From contig CAZXCI010000001.1 in the NCBI GenBank assembly GCA_964639285.1, positions 219,757 to 283,756 of the forward strand: a stretch of 64,000 nt of DNA. The letters run 5' to 3'. Each line of letters begins with the position of its first letter. Within the stretch, counting starts at the first letter, position 1. The notes below the pieces were generated by a model. That model saw only the letters and a list, made by a program, of their open reading frames with translations, ran no database searches and was not told where the DNA came from. This DNA comes from an uncultured Candidatus Saccharibacteria bacterium. Its GTDB lineage: Bacteria; Patescibacteriota; Minisyncoccia; Phycocordibacterales; XYD1-FULL-46-19. Position numbers and translations under genes: made by a program. This document shows positions 11,327 to 58,475 of this stretch, one piece after another.

Positions 11327-11348
11327 TGCCAACATGTTTAGTGTCCAG

Positions 11349-11378
11349 CCGTGGCGCGCTTGCGCGCCACGGCTTTTG
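11349..11378 (+). terminator. Intrinsic terminator hairpin (ccgtggcgcgc-tt-gcgcgccacgg) followed by a T-run
   Basis: 11-bp GC stem plus cttttggttt. Confidence 0.5.
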
Positions 11379-11451: not shown

Positions 11452-13392
11452 CTATGATTTTGTTTCTGCGTCTCTTACATTACCTTCGTCGGAGTCGGAA
11501 GGGCTGGCATTGTCAGCGGGCTTCGCCTCGCTGGAGCCTTCGGCGGAAGCGGGGGCGGATTGGGCCTTCATTAATGCTTCTCCAATTTTTTGCATTTCGG
11601 CAGAGAGGGCGGCGGTCGCTGTTTTAATCGCCTCAATATCCTCGCCATCCTTTACGCCCTTGAGAGCAGTAATTTTGTCTTCGACTCCCCTTTTGATTTC
11701 TTCGGGAACTTTTTTCTCACCTTCGGGTACGCCATCGGCATCTTTCAAACTTTTTTCGGCAGTATAAATTAATTGATCAGCCATGTTGCGAGTTTCAATT
11801 ACCTCGCGCTTTTTCTTGTCTTCTTCGGCGTGAAGTTCGGCATCTTTTTTCATCTTTTCAATATCTTCTTTAGAAAGACTAGTCTTGGCTTCAATGCGAA
11901 TTGATTGTTCTTTGTTTGTCGCTTTATCCTTAGCTTTGACCGACAATATACCGTTGGCATCAAGGTCGAAGGTAACTTCAACCTGAGGCAAACCCCTTGG
12001 TGATGGCGGGATGCCGTCTAAGATGAAGCGGCCAAGTGTTTTGTTATCAGTTACTAGTTCTCGTTCGCCTTGGACGATATGAATTTCAACAGATGTTTGA
12101 TTGTCGGCGGCGGTCGAGAAAATTTGTGACCGCGAGGTAGGGATTGTCGTGTTGCGTTCAATAATTTTTGTAGCAACTCCACCCATTGTTTCGATACCGA
12201 GAGAAAGTGGGGTGACATCGAGGAGCAGGACATCTTTTACGTCTCCGGCAAAAATTCCTCCTTGGATGGCCGCTCCAATAGCTACGACCTCGTCGGGGTT
12301 AATTGAACGGTTTGGCTCTTTGCCGAAGAGGGTTTTTACGGCTTCTTGTATCGCCGGCATACGAGTCTGGCCCCCAACCATGATAATCTCATTAATATCG
12401 CCTACTGCGAGCCCAGAGGCTGTCATAGCACGCTTGGTGATCTCAATCGACTTATCGATAAACTCACGGGCAAGATCCTCTAATGTTGCCCGAGTCATGC
12501 TCATATTGAGGTGGACAGGGCCAGAGGCATCGGAGGTAATAAATGGGATGTTGATCTCGGTTTGATTCATTGTTGAGAGTTCATGTTTGGCTTTCTCGGC
12601 GGCTTCTTTCAAGCGTTGAAGGGCGAGTTCGTCTTTGGTGATATCAATACCATTTTGCTTTTTGAACTCATTACCAATCCAGGCAATGATTTTTTGATCA
12701 ATGTCTTCTCCACCCATATGTGAGTCACCATCGGTAGATTTAACGGAGATACTTTGCTCCTCCTCGCCCCCAATGATTTCGAGAACTGAGACGTCGAAAG
12801 TTCCTCCGCCAAAATCGTAGACAACAACCTTTTCGTCTTTTTTCTTATCAAGACCATAAGCCAAAGCGGCGGCTGTCGGTTCGTTGATAATTCGACGAAC
12901 CTTAAAGCCGGCAATTTCGCCAGCATCTTTTGTTGCCTTGCGTTGAGAGTCGTCGAAGTAGGCGGGCACCGTGATAACAGCCTCTTCAATCTTTTCCCCA
13001 AGCTTGGCCTCAGCATCGTGTTTTAATTTTTGGAGAATTTGAGCCGAGATTTCTTCTGGTCGGAAGTTTTTGTCTCCCATTTTGACCTGGACACCACCGT
13101 CTGATGACTGCTCCATGGTGAAGGAAACAAGCCCCTTATCTTTTTGGATATTGGGATCGTTGAATTTGTGACCCATTAAGCGCTTCACACCAAAAATTGT
13201 GTTCTTTGGGTTAGTGATAGCTTGGCGTTTAGCCAATTGACCCACTAAGCGCTCACCCGCTTTAGAAGTTGCCACAATCGATGGGGTCGTGCGCATACCC
13301 TCGACGTTTTCGACGATACGAGGAGAACCGCCCTCAACAACAGCCATCGCTGAGTTTGCTGTACCTAGATCAATTCCTAAAATTTTTGCCAT
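11452..13392 (-). CDS. dnaK: Chaperone DnaK (Hsp70)
   Basis: [18 protein letters not shown]..., full-length Hsp70. Confidence 0.95.
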
Positions 13393-13978: not shown

Positions 13979-14050
13979 ATTTTAGTGATTTTTAAGAATT
14001 GTTGACTTTTCTTATTCTTGATAATAACAAAAATATTATTTTAATCAATA

Positions 14051-14088
14051 TGTGCGATATCCAATCTCGCACAATAAGGATATTTTAG
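14051..14088. repeat. REP-like palindrome tgtgcga-tatccaatc-tcgcaca plus a conserved tail ataaggatattttag
   Basis: Same unit, with the loop flipped, at 49101-49138; flanks the RAYT gene. Confidence 0.7.
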
Positions 14089-14769
14089 CTATTCTATCCA
14101 CAGATTTGTATAGTTTATAGAGCTGGCTTCTTTTAACCATTCACCTATTTCTTTTTCAAGTTCTTGGGGTGATCTGAGGTAGTCAATTAGTTGATCTTTG
14201 TCTATAATGCTGGCAAAATTGTTGTAGCCTAAGTAATCGCGAAGACTCGACCATTCGTATGATTTTAAGAAGTCTAAAAGACGACTTTTGTCTACAATTT
14301 CTTTTTCTTTCCAGCGGGCTTCAATAAGTTCGGCAGGATTAAAATGGATGTAAAAAGGAATATAATTTAATTGTTCTTCGTTTTCAATTCTAACAAATTT
14401 GTATTTACCTTGGAACAAAGTTCCTGATCTTTCGTTTTTAATATTGAAATAGTGAGTATAGCCAATCCCGATTTTTTTCATAAATTCCGAAGCCCCGTCT
14501 TTGACCAACGGTTTAATTAGGAGGTGGTAATGGTTAGGCATTAAAACAAAAGCCAGGATCTCTACAAGTTTTTCTCGTTGATCTTCTGTTTTTGTGCGAG
14601 ATTGGATATCGCACAAACGATCAATATTTTTTGTTTGATTGACGTCGTTAAAATAATAAAGACAAGCCAAAAAACGACGCCTATCATTGTCGCAACTAAA
14701 TATCTCCCGTTTATCTACCCCGCGGTTGTAGATGTGGTAAATATAGTCCTCCGTCGGCTTTTCTCTCAT
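14089..14769 (-). mobile_element. REP-associated tyrosine transposase (RAYT), an IS200-like Y1 HUH transposase
   Basis: HUH motif LMPNHYHLLI and catalytic Tyr motif FYIHFNP; flanked on both sides by REP palindromes. Confidence 0.75.
14593..14615. repeat. REP palindrome copy (tgtgcga-gattggata-tcgcaca) inside the RAYT coding sequence, translated as ...DRLCDIQSRTK...
   Basis: Identical 7-nt stems and the same 9-nt loop as the uvrC copy. Confidence 0.6.
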
Positions 14770-14800
14770 GTTGTGGATATCTTACCATAAAAACCTTTAT

Positions 14801-14850
14801 TGTGCGATATCCAACCTGCCCGAAATGCCTAGGCAGGCGGGTCTCGCACA
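14801..14850. repeat. REP palindrome (tgtgcga...tcgcaca) carrying a nested 27-nt GC-rich element (cctgcccgaaatgcctaggcaggcggg) in its loop
   Basis: REP stems at 14801-14807 and 14844-14850; the nested element at 14815-14841 belongs to the cctgcc/ggcagg family. Confidence 0.6.
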
Positions 14851-14860
14851 ATCACAAATA

Positions 14861-24599: not shown

Positions 24600-25754
24600 T
24601 TAGGCAATCACTCCTCCACCAAGGCAGATATCTTTGTCGTAGAGGACAAGTGATTGACCGGGGACAGCCAATTGGGGCTTCTCGAAAATGATTTGGGCTG
24701 TTCCCTTTTTACTATCGATATTTTTAATCCGGCATTTCTGGAGAGGTTGGCGATAGCGAACCCTAGATTCTAGCTGGCAGCTTTTACCTGCCTGCGCAGG
24801 CAGGGCTGGCAGCTTAAGAGGGTCAGAAATCCAATTGGTTTTTTCTAGCTGAACTTCTAATCTCTCGGCTCTTATCGAATAAGGTTTATCTGAGACAGTA
24901 AGTGTATTCTTTTTCACATCTTTGGCAATAATATAATAAGGCTTCTCATCTGGGGATTTGGTTGTGATTTCGAAGCCATGGCGTTCTCCCAGGGTGAAGA
25001 AGGTTGCGCCATCATGACAGCCAATAACTTTTCCTTGTTCGTCTAAGATGTTTCCTTTTTTTTCTTTTATCTCACGTTTAAGAAAATCTTTAAAATCAAT
25101 CTCACCGACGAAACAGAGTCCTTGGCTATCTTTCTTCAGAGCGGTAGGTAAATTAAATTTTTTCGCTAAAGCGCGGACTTCTGGCTTAGTATATTTACCG
25201 ATAGGAAACAAGATTTTAGGCAATTGTTCAGACTTGAGGTTCCAGAGAAAATAAGTTTGGTCTTTGTTTAGATCTTTTGAAACTTTTAAAACAAGCCCCT
25301 TTCGAGGTGAGACCTCGGGCTCACTTGAGGACTCACCTCGGGAAACCGGTACTTGAGAAATTTGTGAGTAATGCCCCGTCGCAACAAAGTCGGCGCCGTG
25401 GGTCATGGCCCAATCATAGAAGACGCCGAATTTGATGTGTTTGTTGCACATTACATCGGGGTTGGGAGTTCGTCCAGCTTTATATTCAGCGATAAAATAA
25501 TCAACTACTCTCTTCTTGTATTCTCGACTCAAATCTAAAGTTAGGAGGGGGATATCAAGATGAGCTGCAACTCGCCTGGCCCAGCGACGTTCCTCTCTCC
25601 AGCTACAAAAGTCGGCGGATTTACCCTGAGCAAAGTTGAAGGGCTCCCACACCCTAATAAAAACGCCGACAACATCATAACCCGCCTTCTTCAACAAAGC
25701 AGCCGAAACCGAGCTATCGACCCCTCCGCTCATTCCAACAAAAACTTTTTTCAT
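24600..25754 (-). CDS. mnmA: tRNA-specific 2-thiouridylase MnmA
   Basis: PP-loop SGGVDSSV; carries two short GC-rich in-frame insertions (see findings). Confidence 0.85.
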   Translation of the reverse strand: MKKVFVGMSGGVDSSVSAALLKKAGYDVVGVFIRVWEPFNFAQGKSADFCSWREERRWARRVAAHLDIPLLTLDLSREYKKRVVDYFIAEYKAGRTPNPDVMCNKHIKFGVFYDWAMTHGADFVATGHYSQISQVPVSRGESSSEPEVSPRKGLVLKVSKDLNKDQTYFLWNLKSEQLPKILFPIGKYTKPEVRALAKKFNLPTALKKDSQGLCFVGEIDFKDFLKREIKEKKGNILDEQGKVIGCHDGATFFTLGERHGFEITTKSPDEKPYYIIAKDVKKNTLTVSDKPYSIRAERLEVQLEKTNWISDPLKLPALPAQAGKSCQLESRVRYRQPLQKCRIKNIDSKKGTAQIIFEKPQLAVPGQSLVLYDKDICLGGGVIA

Positions 25755-38851: not shown

Positions 38852-38905
38852 TAGGGTGGATTCAGACCAATTACCGTCAGCGCCTCCGGCGCTGACGGGA
38901 TTTTT
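38852..38905 (+). ncRNA. Candidate tiny sRNA of about 50 nt, lying between a consensus promoter and an intrinsic terminator
   Basis: Terminator ccgtcagcgcc-tcc-ggcgctgacgg-ga-ttttt at 38874-38905; there is no ORF. Confidence 0.3.
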
Positions 38906-40063: not shown

Positions 40064-40091
40064 TCCCGCTGGTGCGCATGCGCACCAGCGG
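40064..40091. repeat. Perfect 28-nt GC-rich palindrome cccgctggtgcgcatgcgcaccagcggg (terminator or mini-element)
   Basis: Perfect dyad symmetry. Confidence 0.5.
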
Positions 40092-40118
40092 GACACAACA
40101 TCTCTCAACAAAAAATAA

Positions 40119-47145: not shown

Positions 47146-48216
47146 TTATACTTTTTTCTGATGTAAAGGTAAAGAGAAGGAAAAAGAGGTTCCTTGATTG
47201 CCCACTGACAAATCTCCACTAGAGCGATTCTCAAACCAGATAGCTCCATGGTGCTTCTCGATGATATCTCGGGCAATGAAGAGGCCCAGGCCAGAGCCAT
47301 CGGGCTCGCTTTTTATCGCATTAGACGCTCTAAAGAATTTTTGGAAGACTTTCTCAGACTCACTCGACGGAATACCGATCCCCGAATCAGTGACAATCAC
47401 TTCAAGAGCCCCCTCGGCACTATTTACTCGCTCATCAGAGATCCTAATCGTGACTTTGCCTCCCTCCGGTGTATATTTAATGGCGTTATCGATAAGGTTC
47501 TCGATGACCATCCGAATTTTATCATCATCTATTTCTACTTTGGGAATAGTATTTTGGGGTCGGAGAAAGAGGAAATTAATCTTCTTTAATGCCGCTTGAC
47601 TAGTAAATTCAAAAATGACATTAGAAATAAGCTTAACTAAGTCAGTTGGCTGGAAGTGATAATCAACCCGCTCGGCATCCATTGAGTCCACTTTGAGCAA
47701 ATCATTGACAATAGAGATTACTCGCTCAGTACTAACCAAACCTTGGAGTAGGTATTTCTTCTGTTCATCTGTCACGGCACCAAGTTGGCCCTTCGCCGCC
47801 ATATCAAGAGTCCACTTAACTGCCGCCAGTGGTGTTCTCAATTGATGAGTCGTTACAGAAATAAATTTTGATTTCGCTTCTTCTAGAGATTGGAGTTTCC
47901 TATTAGCTAAAGTTAGGCCCAATTCTTTAGAATAGAGTTCGCGGTTTTTCTCTTCGAGCTCATTGTTGACCTTCTCTAATTCCTTAATCTGCTGAGTCTT
48001 AAGATTTGCTTCATTAATGAGAATCTTGAGGCGACTTTCTTTGCTTTGAGAAAAACGTCCCAGATAAAAAACCAGTAAGCCAAAAATAATTAGCAAAATC
48101 CAAAAAGCTGGAATAGAGACAAAAGAGAAATCTAATAAAGATTCTACCACCCTTATATTATAGCAACCGCCCGCGTAATTTTCTATGGTAAAACAGTGCA
48201 AAACGGTGAGCTTCAC
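47146..48216 (-). CDS. Sensor histidine kinase (GTG start; overlaps the 3' end of uvrC)
   Basis: H-box HQLRTPLAAVK, HATPase_c motifs (N and G boxes), N-terminal transmembrane helix. Confidence 0.75.
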   Translation of the reverse strand: MKLTVLHCFTIENYAGGCYNIRVVESLLDFSFVSIPAFWILLIIFGLLVFYLGRFSQSKESRLKILINEANLKTQQIKELEKVNNELEEKNRELYSKELGLTLANRKLQSLEEAKSKFISVTTHQLRTPLAAVKWTLDMAAKGQLGAVTDEQKKYLLQGLVSTERVISIVNDLLKVDSMDAERVDYHFQPTDLVKLISNVIFEFTSQAALKKINFLFLRPQNTIPKVEIDDDKIRMVIENLIDNAIKYTPEGGKVTIRISDERVNSAEGALEVIVTDSGIGIPSSESEKVFQKFFRASNAIKSEPDGSGLGLFIARDIIEKHHGAIWFENRSSGDLSVGNQGTSFSFSLPLHQKKV

Positions 48217-49528
48217 TATTGGCCAGAATTATGGCTTTGCGATAATCGCGAATAATCGCCGAGTCACCGATTAATTTCCCCACTTTATGTCTGTCGTTTT
48301 TAGTCACGGCAATGATCTGTGCTCTGTTTAGCGCCGTGCGATTTCTCACAACAGAATCGGCCACATTAACTTGCACCTGATTCCCATCAACCACAATAAC
48401 ATCGGGGTAAGGCCACTCCGTGTGAGCCAAGCGACGTTCGAGAATCTCGCGCAAATTAGCGAGGTCATCAACTTGTTTGGCTTTTGATCCTTTTAGTTTA
48501 AACTTTTTGTATTTACTCTTATCCATTTCGCCGTCTTGCCAGACAACCATCGCCCCCGCAGTATTCGTTCCCGAGAGATGGGCAATGTCATAGGCTTCAA
48601 TCCGAATTGAATGAGTCATAATTTGCGTCCGAGGTCTCTCCTCTGGTGAGTTCGAGGTGAGTCCTCGGGCCCCTTTGAGCAGCGACACATCTCGAATATG
48701 ATTCAAAGCGAAGATTTGATCACGAACTTGCCCCGCTTTTTCGAACTCTCGCTTCTTTGACAAGTTCTTCATCTCTTTTTCCAAACTCTTCAAAATTTCT
48801 TGTTTTTTACCAGAAAAAAGAAGTTTAATGTTTCGCACAATTTTCCGATAATCCGTCTTAGAAATTTCCCCCGTGCAGACACCGGGACAAAGTCCGATCT
48901 GGCGATTGAAACAAGAACGACACCGGTCGCGAGGAGAGACCTCGGCCTGCCCGCAATGCTTTGTAACGCAAGGCAGGCGGGGCTCACTTGAGGACTCACC
49001 TCCCGATCTGCAGGGCAAGCATTTATCCCGAAACGGGAAAATTTTACGAATAATCTTCAGCGCCTCTTTAATTTCACTCGCATAAGGAAACGGCCCAAAT
49101 TGTGCGAGATTGGATATCGCACAATAAGGATATTTTAGTTCTTGGCCACGGACAAGGAGGACACGGGGGAAGTCTTCGTCAGTAATAATGACATACCAAT
49201 AGCTCTTGTCATCTTTTTCTCGCGAATTATATTTGGGTTGATGCTTCTTAATCAATTCGGTCTCCAACAATAGCGCTTCTAAGACAGAATCTGTCTCCTG
49301 CCACTCTACCTTATCCGCAATCTCAACCATACGCCAAATCTTGGGTCCTCTCTTCGCCACGCCGGAGCCTTCGGCGAAGGCTGGGCCAATATCACCAACA
49401 AAATAACTCCGCACTCGATCCTTGAGCGAAGTCGCTTTGCCGACGTAGAGGAGACTTTTCCCCCGTTTGAAGAAATAAACCCCTGGCTTATCTGGCAATT
49501 TATATTTTTTTACATCTTGACTATTCAT
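48158..49528 (-). CDS. uvrC: Excinuclease ABC subunit C, short form lacking the C-terminal (HhH)2 domain and carrying in-frame repeat insertions
   Basis: GIY-YIG motif VYFFKRGKSLLYVGKATSLKDRVRSYF and a C-terminal endonuclease-like domain. Confidence 0.8.
   Translation of the reverse strand: MNSQDVKKYKLPDKPGVYFFKRGKSLLYVGKATSLKDRVRSYFVGDIGPAFAEGSGVAKRGPKIWRMVEIADKVEWQETDSVLEALLLETELIKKHQPKYNSREKDDKSYWYVIITDEDFPRVLLVRGQELKYPYCAISNLAQFGPFPYASEIKEALKIIRKIFPFRDKCLPCRSGGESSSEPRLPCVTKHCGQAEVSPRDRCRSCFNRQIGLCPGVCTGEISKTDYRKIVRNIKLLFSGKKQEILKSLEKEMKNLSKKREFEKAGQVRDQIFALNHIRDVSLLKGARGLTSNSPEERPRTQIMTHSIRIEAYDIAHLSGTNTAGAMVVWQDGEMDKSKYKKFKLKGSKAKQVDDLANLREILERRLAHTEWPYPDVIVVDGNQVQVNVADSVVRNRTALNRAQIIAVTKNDRHKVGKLIGDSAIIRDYRKAIILANSEAHRFALFYHRKLRGRLL
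48931..49003. repeat. Composite GC-rich mini-element inside uvrC: a 36-nt cctgcc...ggcagg element nested within a copy of the 42-nt element also present in mnmA
   Basis: ggctcacttgaggactcacctc is shared with 25321-25342; the 36-nt insert is in-frame (translated RLPCVTKHCGQA). Confidence 0.65.
49101..49138. repeat. REP unit (tgtgcga-gattggata-tcgcaca plus tail ataaggatattttag) inside uvrC, translated in-frame
   Basis: Same unit as the RAYT-flanking REP at 14051-14088, with the loop inverted. Confidence 0.7.
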
Positions 49529-54113: not shown

Positions 54114-54177
54114 AAGACAAAGAAGGCCTTTCGGCTTTTTTCATTATACCACAAAAATATTATTAATAGAAAAAGGC

Positions 54178-54200
54178 CGGCGTTCCTCCACGCCGGCCAT
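54178..54200 (-). terminator. Intrinsic terminator (ggccggcg...cgccggcc) downstream of the small zinc-ribbon gene
   Basis: 8-bp GC stem plus a T5 run on the minus strand. Confidence 0.5.
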
Positions 54201-54223
54201 TAGTATCTGCATCGTCACCGTTG

Positions 54224-55048: not shown

Positions 55049-57208
55049 TTATTGATTGCTTTTCTCCAACTCACGAATCTCGTCACGGAGGATGGCAGCG
55101 GTTTCGAAGTCGAGATTCTTGACTGCTTCGGACATTTGTTTATTTTTTTCTTTAATCAATTTCTTATAACCCTTCTTATCAAGATCAAGCGTCTCAATCG
55201 CCAGCAAATTGGCCACCGCCTTATGACGATCCCCAGCAATCGAGTCAGTAATGTCATGAATTTTCTTAGAAATAGAAATGGGGGTGATTTTGTGTTTTTT
55301 GTTATAAGCCAGCTGGATAGTGCGACGACGATTGGTCTCATCAATCGCCTTCTTCATTGAGCCAGTCACAACATCAGCATAAAGAATTACTCGCCCAGCC
55401 AAATTACGAGCCGCCCGACCGATAGTCTGAATTAAGGAAACTTCAGAACGCAAAAACCCCTCCTTATCAGCATCAAGAATCCCGATGAAAGAGACCTCGG
55501 GCAAGTCCAAGCCCTCACGCAAGAGGTTCACTCCCACCAAGCAGTCAAAAGTTCCTCGACGAAATTCGGTGAGAATCTTAATGCGCTCCAAGGTCTTAAC
55601 CTCACTGTGGAGATACTCCGACTTCACCCCCTCGTTCTTGAGATACTCGGCGAGATCCTCGGCCATCTTCTTGGTGAGAGTGGTGGCAATCACGCGATGA
55701 CCACTTTTAATTTCTTTTTGTGCTTCTACTATAAAATCTTTTATCTGGCCATCGTAAGCCCGGCAGTTTGAAGTCGTATCTCGCGTAGCCAGATCCGACT
55801 TCGAACTGCCAGATCCGAGGACTTTCTGAGAAGCAGAGTTCTTCTTCGGAGTTATTCTTGAAATTATGGGCCTAATTTTGACCATTGGATCAATCAACCC
55901 AGTCGGACGGATAATTTGTTCGACAACGCCCTTTCCTTCACTTTTTTCAAGTTCATACTCACCTGGTGTGGCACTGGTATAGATAACTTGACCAACCCGT
56001 TCTTCAAATTCGGGGAACCTAAGGGGGCGATTATCAAGCGCGGAGGGAAGACGAAAACCATACTCAACTAAATTCTTCTTGCGACTCTCATCACCAGCAA
56101 ACATCCCCCGAATTTGTGGTACCGCCACATGCGATTCATCAATAATGGTCAAAAAGTCAGCGACCTTCTTCGCATGAGAACCTGTCCCGAGCGTAGTCGA
56201 GGGGAAGTAGTCAAGCAAAGTCGCTGGCGCCTCCCCCTTCTTCCGCCCCGTTAGGTGACGCGAATAATTCTCAATTCCATTGCAATAACCCACCTCCTTA
56301 ATCATCGCGAGGTCATAATTGGTTCGTCTTTTTAATCTCTCGGCCTCAAGCAACTTCCCCTCTTTATTTAATTCCTTCAATCTCGTCTCAAGCTCTAATT
56401 TTATAGATTTTATCGCGCGATCACGGTCTTCTTGACTAGTGATGAAGTGCTTGGCCGGATAAATATAGGTTTCTCGGGGCGTACTAATGATCCGCCGGGA
56501 AATAGAATCAACGATCAAAATTTCACCAACTCTACTTGCCCCGTCATGAGAGGAGTCAGCCACCATTTTCAAATTCACAATCTCACGGCTACCCGGCAAC
56601 ATAATCTCGATGGAGTTACCAATCGCGCGGAAGGTGCCCGGAGTTAAGTCAGCATTTGTTCGTTCAAAATAAACATTGATTAATTTCTCAATAATTTCCT
56701 GACGCGTATATTTGTCACCCACCAAGAGACGCACGAAGCTCTTGGCATATTCCTCCGGACTCCCTAAGCCATAAATACACGAAACCGAAGCGACAATAAT
56801 CACATCACGCCGAGTAAGCAAGGCCTCGGTGGAAGCATAGCGCAAACGCTCAATTTCTTCGTTAATGCTGGCGTCCTTCTCGATATAAGTATCAGAGTGA
56901 GCAATATAGGCTTCGGGTTGATAATAATCGTAATAAGAGACAAAATAATGCACGGCCGCATCAGGGAAAAAATCGCGATACTCTTGGGCCAATTGGGCCG
57001 CCAAGGTCTTGTTGTGAGCGATTACCAGGGTTGGCTTATTGTGCTCGGCAATCACATTGGCCATGGTGAAGGTCTTGCCCGAGCCCGTCACACCCAACAA
57101 GGTCTGATGCTTGAGACCTTCCTTAAGCCCCTTAACCAGCGCCTCAATCGCTCGTGGTTGGTCACCAGCTGGGGCAAACTTAGATTGTAATTTAAAAATC
57201 TTGGCCAT
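55049..57208 (-). CDS. uvrB: Excinuclease ABC subunit B
   Basis: GVTGSGKTFTMANVI, helicase motifs, C-terminal UVR domain; possible insertion of about 35 aa around 55762-55820. Confidence 0.9.
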   Translation of the reverse strand: MAKIFKLQSKFAPAGDQPRAIEALVKGLKEGLKHQTLLGVTGSGKTFTMANVIAEHNKPTLVIAHNKTLAAQLAQEYRDFFPDAAVHYFVSYYDYYQPEAYIAHSDTYIEKDASINEEIERLRYASTEALLTRRDVIIVASVSCIYGLGSPEEYAKSFVRLLVGDKYTRQEIIEKLINVYFERTNADLTPGTFRAIGNSIEIMLPGSREIVNLKMVADSSHDGASRVGEILIVDSISRRIISTPRETYIYPAKHFITSQEDRDRAIKSIKLELETRLKELNKEGKLLEAERLKRRTNYDLAMIKEVGYCNGIENYSRHLTGRKKGEAPATLLDYFPSTTLGTGSHAKKVADFLTIIDESHVAVPQIRGMFAGDESRKKNLVEYGFRLPSALDNRPLRFPEFEERVGQVIYTSATPGEYELEKSEGKGVVEQIIRPTGLIDPMVKIRPIISRITPKKNSASQKVLGSGSSKSDLATRDTTSNCRAYDGQIKDFIVEAQKEIKSGHRVIATTLTKKMAEDLAEYLKNEGVKSEYLHSEVKTLERIKILTEFRRGTFDCLVGVNLLREGLDLPEVSFIGILDADKEGFLRSEVSLIQTIGRAARNLAGRVILYADVVTGSMKKAIDETNRRRTIQLAYNKKHKITPISISKKIHDITDSIAGDRHKAVANLLAIETLDLDKKGYKKLIKEKNKQMSEAVKNLDFETAAILRDEIRELEKSNQ

Positions 57209-58475
57209 TGATAATTTTTTCTCTAATGTTATTAGTCAAATGGATTAGAAAATAGAGATTATGAACTGAGGCAAGTGTGCCGGCCAACATTTCCTTAGCG
57301 CGGAAGAGGTGGGCCAAGTAAGCGCGAGTGTAATGCTTACAAACATAACAACCGCAACCTTCCTCAATCGGAGTAAAATCTTCTTTATATTGAGCATTCA
57401 AGATATTTAGACGGCCATTTTTTGTAATTAACGTACCATTCCTAGCCATGCGGGTAGGAGTGACACAATCGAAAGTGTCGGCTCCATTTTTAATCCCCTC
57501 CACGATATCTTCAGATTCGCCAATGCCTAATAAATGTCTTGGTTTGTCTTCGGGCAAAAGAGCGGAGACCCAACCCACCGCTGTCCCCATGTCTTCTTTA
57601 TTAAAGGAGCCCCCAATGCCGAAGCCGTCGAAGTCCATTGCTCCAATCACCCTTGCCGATTCTTCTCGCAAATCTTGATGTCGCCCACCCTGAACAATGC
57701 CAAATAAGGCGGGTTGCGAAGAAGGTAAGAAGTCCCTATCAAAAACGTCTGGCCGAGCATCGCGAGGAGATCCGAGGACTTTTTGAGAGGGAGCTTCTTC
57801 CTTCTGAAGCAAACGTTTATGTTCAGCCAAACTTCTCTCCGCCCAACGGTGAGTTCTCTCCATCGCTTGCTTCTGATAATCATAGTCAGCAGAAGGTGAC
57901 GTGCATTCATCAAAAGCAAAAATAATATCCGCTCCCAAATTATGCTGAATCTGCATCGAACGTTCAGGGGTGAAGCGATGCTCACTCCCATCAATATGTG
58001 ATTTGAAAGTTACCCCTTCCTCATCAATCTTCGCCAGCTTGACAATAGGCTCACGATCGGAGTCTTCTTCGGCCTGCCCGCCTAAGTTTTGCTTAGCAAA
58101 ATTTTGGAGGGCAAATTTAGAAATCCCACCTTCACCGTATGCGGCCCCCAGAGAGAAAACTTGGAAACCGCCAGAGTCAGTCATCATTGGTCCGTGCCAA
58201 TTCATAAAATTATGCAGTCCACCCGCGCGAGCCACCAATTCATCGCCTGGTTGGAGATATAAGTGATAAGTGTTAGCGAGCACCACTTGCGCGCCAAGAT
58301 TATTGACCATCTCGGGCGTCAGAGCTTTAACTGTGGCCTTAGTTCCCACAGCAACAAAAGCCGGGGTCTGGATATCCCCGTGTGCCGTATGGATCACTCC
58401 GGCCCTGCCTGCGCAGGCAGGCCGGCCTAACTCACCTTTCATCTTCTTCTCAATTTTAAAACTAAAATCGCTCAC
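57192..58475 (-). CDS. tgt: Queuine tRNA-ribosyltransferase
   Basis: TPAFVAVGT and the zinc site CGCYVCKHYTRAYLAHLF; a GC-rich palindrome is translated in-frame near the N-terminus. Confidence 0.85.
   Translation of the reverse strand: MSDFSFKIEKKMKGELGRPACAGRAGVIHTAHGDIQTPAFVAVGTKATVKALTPEMVNNLGAQVVLANTYHLYLQPGDELVARAGGLHNFMNWHGPMMTDSGGFQVFSLGAAYGEGGISKFALQNFAKQNLGGQAEEDSDREPIVKLAKIDEEGVTFKSHIDGSEHRFTPERSMQIQHNLGADIIFAFDECTSPSADYDYQKQAMERTHRWAERSLAEHKRLLQKEEAPSQKVLGSPRDARPDVFDRDFLPSSQPALFGIVQGGRHQDLREESARVIGAMDFDGFGIGGSFNKEDMGTAVGWVSALLPEDKPRHLLGIGESEDIVEGIKNGADTFDCVTPTRMARNGTLITKNGRLNILNAQYKEDFTPIEEGCGCYVCKHYTRAYLAHLFRAKEMLAGTLASVHNLYFLIHLTNNIREKIINGQDF

Follow-up and report, generated by a model that had tools for sequence, protein, structure and literature searches.

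Short GC-rich palindromes built on CCTGCC and GGCAGG lie at four places in a 64-kb stretch of DNA, hereafter the window, from an uncultured Candidatus Saccharibacteria bacterium (contig CAZXCI010000001.1 of assembly GCA_964639285.1, positions 219,757 to 283,756). In our analysis all four copies are discrete insertions of exact units with sharp ends, and they are very likely mobile elements that insert as such units. With less assurance, we consider it probable on the whole that they are non-autonomous miniature mobile elements of two forms. An enzyme of the HUH or REP-associated tyrosine transposase (RAYT) type, REP standing for repetitive extragenic palindromic sequence, is the leading though doubtful candidate for mobilizing them in trans.

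The window has a GC content of 38-46%, and long open reading frames (ORFs) cover about 91% of it. Our sequence search covered these 64 kb. The pattern CCTGCC-N(0-30)-GGCAGG matches at 14815-14837, 24787-24804, 48946-48977 and 58404-58421, four times against 0.05 expected from 100 shuffles, none of which gave four matches. This agrees with the original prediction, made from the letters alone, that such palindromes occur in tgt, mnmA, uvrC and a REP; its coordinates for both exact copies were off by one base. These exact copies, at 24787-24804 in mnmA and 58404-58421 in tgt, read CCTGCCTGCGCAGGCAGG, a perfect 18-bp palindrome with the layout (CCTG)2-C|G-(CAGG)2 (hereafter the 18-mer), and no further copy with up to three mismatches was found in the window (0.01 expected). 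At the looped sites the complete units are 27 nt (14815-14841) and 36 nt (48946-48981) long. Perfect dyad symmetry had been proposed for all four sites; it is present in the two 18-mers and absent from the two looped copies, and the proposed extension of the tgt copy to 58400-58428 forms a stem that is imperfect, with one bulge. A search of the window with Rfam returned two tRNAs only and no match at the elements.

The tgt gene (ORF 57192-58475, minus strand, PDB matches at 3e-95) illustrates the insertion at both protein and DNA level. The minus strand of the 18-mer reads CCT GCC TGC GCA GGC AGG, giving PACAGR in the context LGR-PACAGR-AGVI. In an alignment of 25 orthologues, 24 lack the insert and read L-GRAGVI, while the window protein and P0007 read LGRPACAGRAGVI. 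The peptide had been thought to replace an Arg-rich segment; the alignment shows instead that six residues have been inserted into L-GRAG. The filled site of the window, TTA GGC CGG|18-mer|GCC GGA, can be compared with two empty sites, TTA GGG CGG|GCT GGG in locus L271 and TTA GGC AGG GCC in L270. The GGC AGG of the latter is what would be expected to remain if a filled allele had undergone deletion between its GGC repeats, which is suggestive only. In P0007 (locus L146) the element is at the identical position with one of its 18 nucleotides changed, synonymously. An AlphaFold model of Tgt (mean pLDDT 74) places the insert in the turn of a beta-hairpin, between the strands at 5-11 and 24-30, and predicts disorder for two further inserts that derive from repeats. 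In trees from 360 ungapped columns of this single protein, the window sequence groups with P0002, which has no insert, in 93.5% of bootstraps, and a grouping of the two carriers without P0002 and P0013 is recovered in 0.5%. The presence of the insert in Tgt is not monophyletic, which implies a double gain at this site, precise losses or transfer of the allele. Locus L146 holds an additional perfect 18-mer (2658-2675) in a 2-hydroxyacid dehydrogenase gene neighbouring tgt. This site is filled as CCC GA|18-mer|A AAT, and the corresponding empty sites read CCA GAA AAC in L271 and GAA GAG AAT in the window.

Filled and empty states can likewise be recognized at the other window sites. In mnmA (ORF 24600-25754, minus strand, match at 7e-82) the minus-strand reading of the 18-mer is C CTG CCT GCG CAG GCA GG, giving (A)LPAQAG. 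The MnmA orthologue P0124 lacks about six residues here; in P0122 (locus L147) the same site holds a decayed 18-mer with four of 18 positions changed. The same gene contains, at 25303-25340, a 38-nt hairpin, CGAGGTGAGACCTCGG|GCTCACTTGAGGACTCACCTCG, which is uninterrupted and serves as the empty-site reference for uvrC (ORF 48158-49528, minus strand, a clear orthologue). In uvrC this host hairpin recurs at 48930-49005 as a 'GESSSEP...EVSPR' element with exactly 36 nt in its loop. The inserted unit, CCTGCCCGCAATGCTTTGTAACGCAAGGCAGGCGGG (48946-48981, plus strand), consists of a hairpin preceded by a 5' CCTG tail and is translated from the minus strand as RLPCVTKHCGQA. The UvrC orthologue of L271 has the host hairpin minus exactly 12 residues, that is, 36 nt, and in the MnmA orthologue P0123 the host hairpin is filled ('GESSSEPRLPCVAKHCGQAEVSPQ') where that of the window is empty. 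The fourth copy, CCTGCCCGAAATGCCTAGGCAGGCGGG (14815-14841, plus strand), is intergenic and lies in the loop of a REP at 14800-14851 that reads TTGTGCGA TATCCAA ... TC TCGCACAA. Copies of this REP at 14050, 14592 and 49100 read TATCCAA|TCTCGC; at 14800, exactly 27 nt occupy the position of the bar. No target-site duplication was seen at the resolved junctions of the Tgt, dehydrogenase, REP and host-hairpin pairs of filled and empty sites, and the uvrC junction has at most a 2-nt GG ambiguity.

The original prediction treated the four copies as a single mini-element family, mobile or spread by recombination and distinct from the REP. Spread by insertion and distinctness from the REP are borne out by our results: the 18-mer differs in sequence from the REP that flanks the RAYT-like gene, and one of the four copies has itself been inserted into that REP. 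There are, however, two separable elements rather than one: the 18-bp perfect palindrome, present twice, and a CCTG-tailed hairpin of 27 or 36 nt, also present twice. The 27- and 36-nt units both start with CCTGCCCG and finish with AGGCAGGCGGG. On folding, this long form gives a 5' CCTG tail and then a hairpin whose stem closes with CCCG(C)/(G)CGGG, and pairing of CCTGCC with GGCAGG is therefore not the main stem of the looped units. A scan of metagenomes for the arms of the long form found, among the matches listed, recurrent families on many contigs, including CCTGCCCGCAATGCTTCGCAACGCGAGGCAGGCGGG, which is the uvrC insert, and a 39-nt family; in locus L230 the CCTGCCCGCAATGCTTCGCAACGCGAGGCAGGCGGG family is in the same host-hairpin context as in uvrC. 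Overall the long form ranges from 24 to 40 nt. A common origin of both forms is plausible through their shared CCTG/CAGG block structure; no intermediates between them were found in the fetched loci.

The 18-mer is widespread. A species-representative genome collection contains it in at least 120 stretches, a total that is biased, as is the ratio of perfect to decayed copies, since the collection scans take exact matches only. About 71 of these stretches are labelled as Candidate Phyla Radiation (CPR) and span many classes, among them WWE3, lineages of Microgenomates and Parcubacteria, Saccharibacteria and Dojkabacteria. The labels of homologues put the source of the window in the CPR (Patescibacteria) too, near Paceibacteria and Vogelbacteria. 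The remainder are mainly from Bacteroidota and from metagenome-assembled genomes of about 40% GC labelled Gammaproteobacteria, with a few at high GC that may be due to chance; the taxon labels of some metagenome-assembled genomes may be unreliable. Fewer than one chance copy is estimated in 596 Gb at 40% GC. The flanks are unrelated between stretches and the borders are sharp, with a purine at position -1 in 81% and a pyrimidine at +1 in 76%, the two positions varying independently. Within the fetched loci there are about seven additional perfect copies, five with one mismatch and about five with four mismatches. Viral contigs gave 25 matches, which are uninformative because most are at high GC (58% or above). 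The 18-mer is not the sole sequence of its kind, because some of the same CPR and Bacteroidota genomes share a second short GC-rich palindrome, TCCGCCAGCTGGCGGA, in unrelated surroundings (L066 at 2080, L082 at 1716 and 7274, L097 at 7451, L105 at 4963, L107 at 5739 and L112 at 5471). In L105 and L112 the two palindromes are about 30 nt apart within a larger repeat. A fragment comprising the first 16-24 nt or so of tRNA-Gln is interrupted by the 18-mer in five Parcubacteria-type genomes, as tgccgg.tc.|18-mer|tctaatggtagga (L027 at 1735, L037 at 3540, L042 at 372, L038 at 6792 and L110 at 728); this may reflect either one old insertion that they share or a hot spot. We rejected the possibility that this is an insertion into a tRNA gene: ARAGORN places an intact tRNA-Gln downstream, 30-400 nt away, and the 18-mer thus sits in a copy of the 5' fragment.

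Within genes the 18-mer may be expected to be translated and tolerated, because its length is a multiple of three (six codons) and none of its six frames contains a stop. In low-GC loci 57 of 102 sites are inside ORFs and about 44% are intergenic. The possible reading frames are used very unequally: in open frames of at least 150 codons, LPAQAG occurs 44 times, PACAGR 11 times and CLRRQ three times. This strong bias indicates that the copies are translated and filtered by selection, and it disfavours both removal from the mRNA and an assembly artefact, since neither predicts a frame bias. What selection retains is mostly the harmless LPAQAG frame and insertion points in surface loops. The copies pass down vertically and degenerate, and non-sister lineages have acquired or lost them at one and the same site. 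Many CPR lineages, and some other phyla, contain perfect copies that are fresh.

Two of the window copies are nested in hairpins, and a preference for hairpin loops as insertion sites had been put forward as a check on the elements. For the long form this preference is significant, six of 72 copies lying in hairpin loops against 1.3% of controls. We rejected it as a general rule for the 18-mer: in a test with perfect stems the frequency was 4/104 against 1.1%, which is not significant, and folding energies did not differ clearly from in-silico insertions (p=0.09) nor at all from controls matched for the purine|pyrimidine junction. Nesting also occurs in the opposite sense. At 7385-7423 of L070, a WOR-3 contig with several composites, a hairpin, CGCGCCGCTTCACTTTGCGGC, is inserted at the exact centre of an 18-mer.

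Hairpin nesting, insertion of exact units, the lack of a duplication and the variety of targets, which include coding sequence, the DNA between genes and loops within other hairpin repeats, together fit an enzyme that uses hairpin or single-stranded DNA as its substrate and creates no duplication. Insertion would pass through such DNA and would be catalysed in trans by an unlinked enzyme. The candidate enzyme would most likely be a Y1 HUH transposase of the IS200/RAYT kind, and mobilization could be REP-like, with CCTG in the role of the REP tetranucleotide. One such candidate is encoded in the window at 14089-14769 (minus strand); the 27-nt element lies 46 nt upstream of this gene, which is flanked by TTGTGCGA-type REPs. 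Its product has a HYHLL motif and matches Pfam Y1_Tnp with 31.8 bits (cut-off 23); against the NCBIfam model REP_Tyr_transpos it scores 44.9 bits, below the cut-off of 80. A tblastn search with this protein found homologues in only four loci, whose REPs are different ones. Besides the window, L029, L031 and L230 contain RAYT-like genes, and in L029 and L031 an 18-mer lies about 150-200 nt upstream of the gene. RAYT/HUH enzymes are the leading candidates because these genomes contain RAYT-like genes whose own REPs have invaded coding sequence.

Several results weigh against this interpretation. None of the RAYT genes examined (window, L029, L031, L230) is flanked by CCTGCC elements as inverted repeats; each has different REPs or hairpins, and CCTGCC elements are found only near these or nested in them. 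No transposase family was enriched, as judged with Pfam, among 150 ORFs flanking intergenic copies, and no larger parent element bounded by half-sites was seen in fetched loci of up to 55% GC; the segment between two inverted 18-mers in L033 contains housekeeping genes. There is no conserved target tetranucleotide of the IS608 type beside the element, the left flanks of the 36-mer being variable, and the orientation of the long form relative to the local gene direction is unbiased (18:15). What defines REPs is a palindrome preceded by the 5' tetranucleotide GT(A/G)G (PMC3686654), whereas the tetranucleotide of the long form is CCTG and the 18-mer has no separate tail. The copy number per genome looks low, with two copies of each form in 64 kb, and one identical 18-mer across phyla is atypical of REP families, which are normally lineage-specific. 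The predominance of perfect copies is partly a matter of ascertainment because the scans take exact matches only. Mobilization driven by a RAYT/HUH enzyme in particular is therefore a possibility that we regard as doubtful.

Other short repeats also occur in the window, several of them in coding sequence. The RAYT-associated REP, TTGTGCGAGATTGGATATCGCACAA, lies in coding sequence at 49100-49124 (uvrC) and 14592-14616 (the RAYT-like ORF itself), and also at 14050-14074. In UvrC it reads 'YPYCAISNLAQ', which in the L271 orthologue has decayed to 'SPYFSISNLEK', and inside the transposase gene it reads 'LCDIQSRT'. The REP-related peptides CAKSDF, PYCARLDIAQT and NPYLSISNLENP are inserts in Tgt orthologues. 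The 38-nt host hairpin of mnmA and uvrC encodes 'GESSSEPEVSPR', a peptide also found in the Tgt orthologue P0005, and it resembles a REP (CTTAGAGGTGACACCTCTAAG) flanking the RAYT gene of L031. Its loop is a hot spot, the MnmA orthologue P0124 having a different 11-residue insert there. Around residues 40-50 of MnmA an insert, 'NFAQGKSADF', distinguishes the window protein from most orthologues (WEPxGFVC), and similar but non-identical inserts in P0128, P0135 and P0146 suggest another hot spot. The neighbouring genes uvrB (55811-55850) and tgt (57768-57807) share a 40-nt direct repeat, 78% identical, which encodes 'SQKVLGS' and in Tgt is part of an insert of about 25 residues missing from many orthologues. 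Another peptide of UvrB, 'KSDLATRDTTSN', is seen again in other Tgt orthologues. Two GC-rich stretches of 34 nt, 85% identical, form a repeat at 11521-11554, at the 3' end of a dnaK-like ORF, and at 49352-49385 in uvrC, where it encodes 'PAFAEGSGVAK', a nine-residue insert that is not present in the L271 orthologue. Perfect or near-perfect GC-rich palindromes, including the 30-nt TCCCGCTGGTGCGCATGCGCACCAGCGGGA, also occur in short intergenic gaps (40064-40093, 11347-11374, 38870-38903 and 54169-54204); these could be terminators or further hairpin elements.

Neither the 18-mer sequence nor palindromic inserts of the REP type or of the type of miniature transposable elements with inverted repeats (MITEs) in CPR were found in the searchable literature. 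The CCTGCC elements mix traits of several known systems, coming closest to REPs, Rickettsia palindromic elements and mitochondrial GC clusters, and lack defining features of each. With REPs, their hairpin-forming doublets (REPINs) and RAYTs they share small size (GC-rich hairpins of 20-40 nt), the lack of a target-site duplication, a long form made up of a conserved 5' tetranucleotide and a palindrome, and the presence of a RAYT-like gene in the window. Apart from the differences set out above, REPs are high-copy and almost exclusively intergenic, whereas more than half of the 18-mer sites in low-GC loci are inside ORFs. Rickettsia palindromic elements are palindromic selfish repeats that insert in frame into the genes of a reduced genome and are translated at tolerated positions. 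In-frame translated insertion into protein-coding genes is shared with the elements described here; however, Rickettsia palindromic elements are about 100-150 bp long and confined to Rickettsia, while ours are 18-39 bp long, include one perfect palindrome and extend across CPR and beyond. The IS200/IS605 family, with its palindrome-associated miniature derivatives, transposes through single-strand hairpins without duplication and excises precisely, which would fit the sharp ends, the missing duplication and the apparent precise loss in Tgt. Members of this family insert 3' of a fixed tetra- or pentanucleotide target and have a strand bias and two unlike end hairpins; the elements here have one hairpin, only the weak purine|pyrimidine preference and no strand bias. 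The GC clusters of yeast mitochondria (GC42/GC18) and of other fungal mitochondria are small GC-rich palindromes in a compact, AT-richer genome, occurring sporadically at homologous sites, turning over quickly, passing between species and merging or nesting into composites; they include an 18-nt mobile unit, have a putative AG target-site duplication and move by a mechanism that is unknown (PMC4478555). Sporadic palindromes at homologous sites and composites are seen here as well, a likeness of behaviour only: our elements show no duplication, their hosts are free bacterial genomes, and no sequence similarity was noted.

Other explanations of the four palindromes have to be weighed against an insertion element, and each fails on at least one tested point. 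The 18-mer could have spread by recombination without transposition, acting as a signal like an uptake sequence or Chi, with alleles moved among related CPR lineages by natural transformation and gene conversion. CPR bacteria rely on imported DNA, the 18-mer is identical across lineages, its frame bias in coding sequence resembles that of uptake sequences, and allele transfer would explain why the same Tgt site is filled in two non-sister lineages. Recombination of this kind does not, however, account for the first appearance of an exact 18-nt block at new and unrelated positions, such as the GA|A junction in L146 or the loops of the REP and host hairpin. Uptake sequences, moreover, arise by point mutation and occur about once per kb, far more densely than a block inserted about once per 30 kb (two copies in the 64 kb of the window), and orthologous copies of the 18-mer decay freely. 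We consider this explanation unlikely. Slightly less likely again is that the 18-mer is the footprint or solo end of an insertion sequence of the DDE type with terminal inverted repeats CCTGCCTGC, either as two ends abutted after excision or as a minimal MITE. A perfect inverted repeat with nothing between its arms does look like two joined termini, and the long family, with its variable loops, is reminiscent of MITEs that have conserved ends. Yet none of the filled and empty pairs has a target-site duplication, the fetched loci of up to 55% GC contain no full-length parent bounded by half-sites, and no transposase is enriched beside the copies.

We give little credence to the proposal that the palindromes are functional hairpins selected by the host (protein-binding sites, terminators or RNA-stability elements) and kept for that function rather than through mobility. 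It would suit the intergenic fraction of the 18-mers, the stability of the 18-mer hairpin (-6.5 kcal/mol) and its occurrence at the same place upstream of tRNA-Gln in the five Parcubacteria-type genomes. It is contradicted by the copies in unrelated housekeeping genes at positions that are not conserved, absent from most orthologues and decaying where inherited, and by the frame bias, which shows selection on the peptide and not on a nucleic-acid function. Local production of the palindromes, or an artefact of assembly or sequencing, is close to refuted. Template switching is known to produce palindromes, hairpin-primed synthesis may do likewise, and all four window sites can be extended with their flanks into larger imperfect hairpins. 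Against this, over 100 genomes, which come from many studies and were built with many assemblers, contain the identical 18 nt at unrelated sites; the same Tgt was also assembled independently in Logan, with the 18-mer present (L149); inherited copies have decayed; and neither process predicts the frame bias.

An identical 18-mer in more than 100 genomes, with filled and empty alleles and no duplication, implies a widespread insertion activity acting in trans, for which the 18-mer provides a simple searchable marker. We tentatively suggest that the 18-bp palindrome may be among the smallest active mobile DNAs known, compatible with coding sequence and currently active across CPR and some other phyla through an undescribed mechanism and enzyme, and that, together with REP-like hairpins, it may generally supply the loop insertions by which CPR proteins exceed their orthologues in length. 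The genomes of CPR bacteria (Patescibacteria) are about 90% coding and their proteins are rich in lineage-specific insertions, and the window shows one concrete source of these, tiny hairpin elements that persist within essential genes (tgt, mnmA and uvrC) because their translation does no harm. Such inserts give spurious length variation and peptides common to unrelated proteins, which matters for annotation and phylogenomics, and they can mark recent mobility or gene flow in uncultivated lineages.

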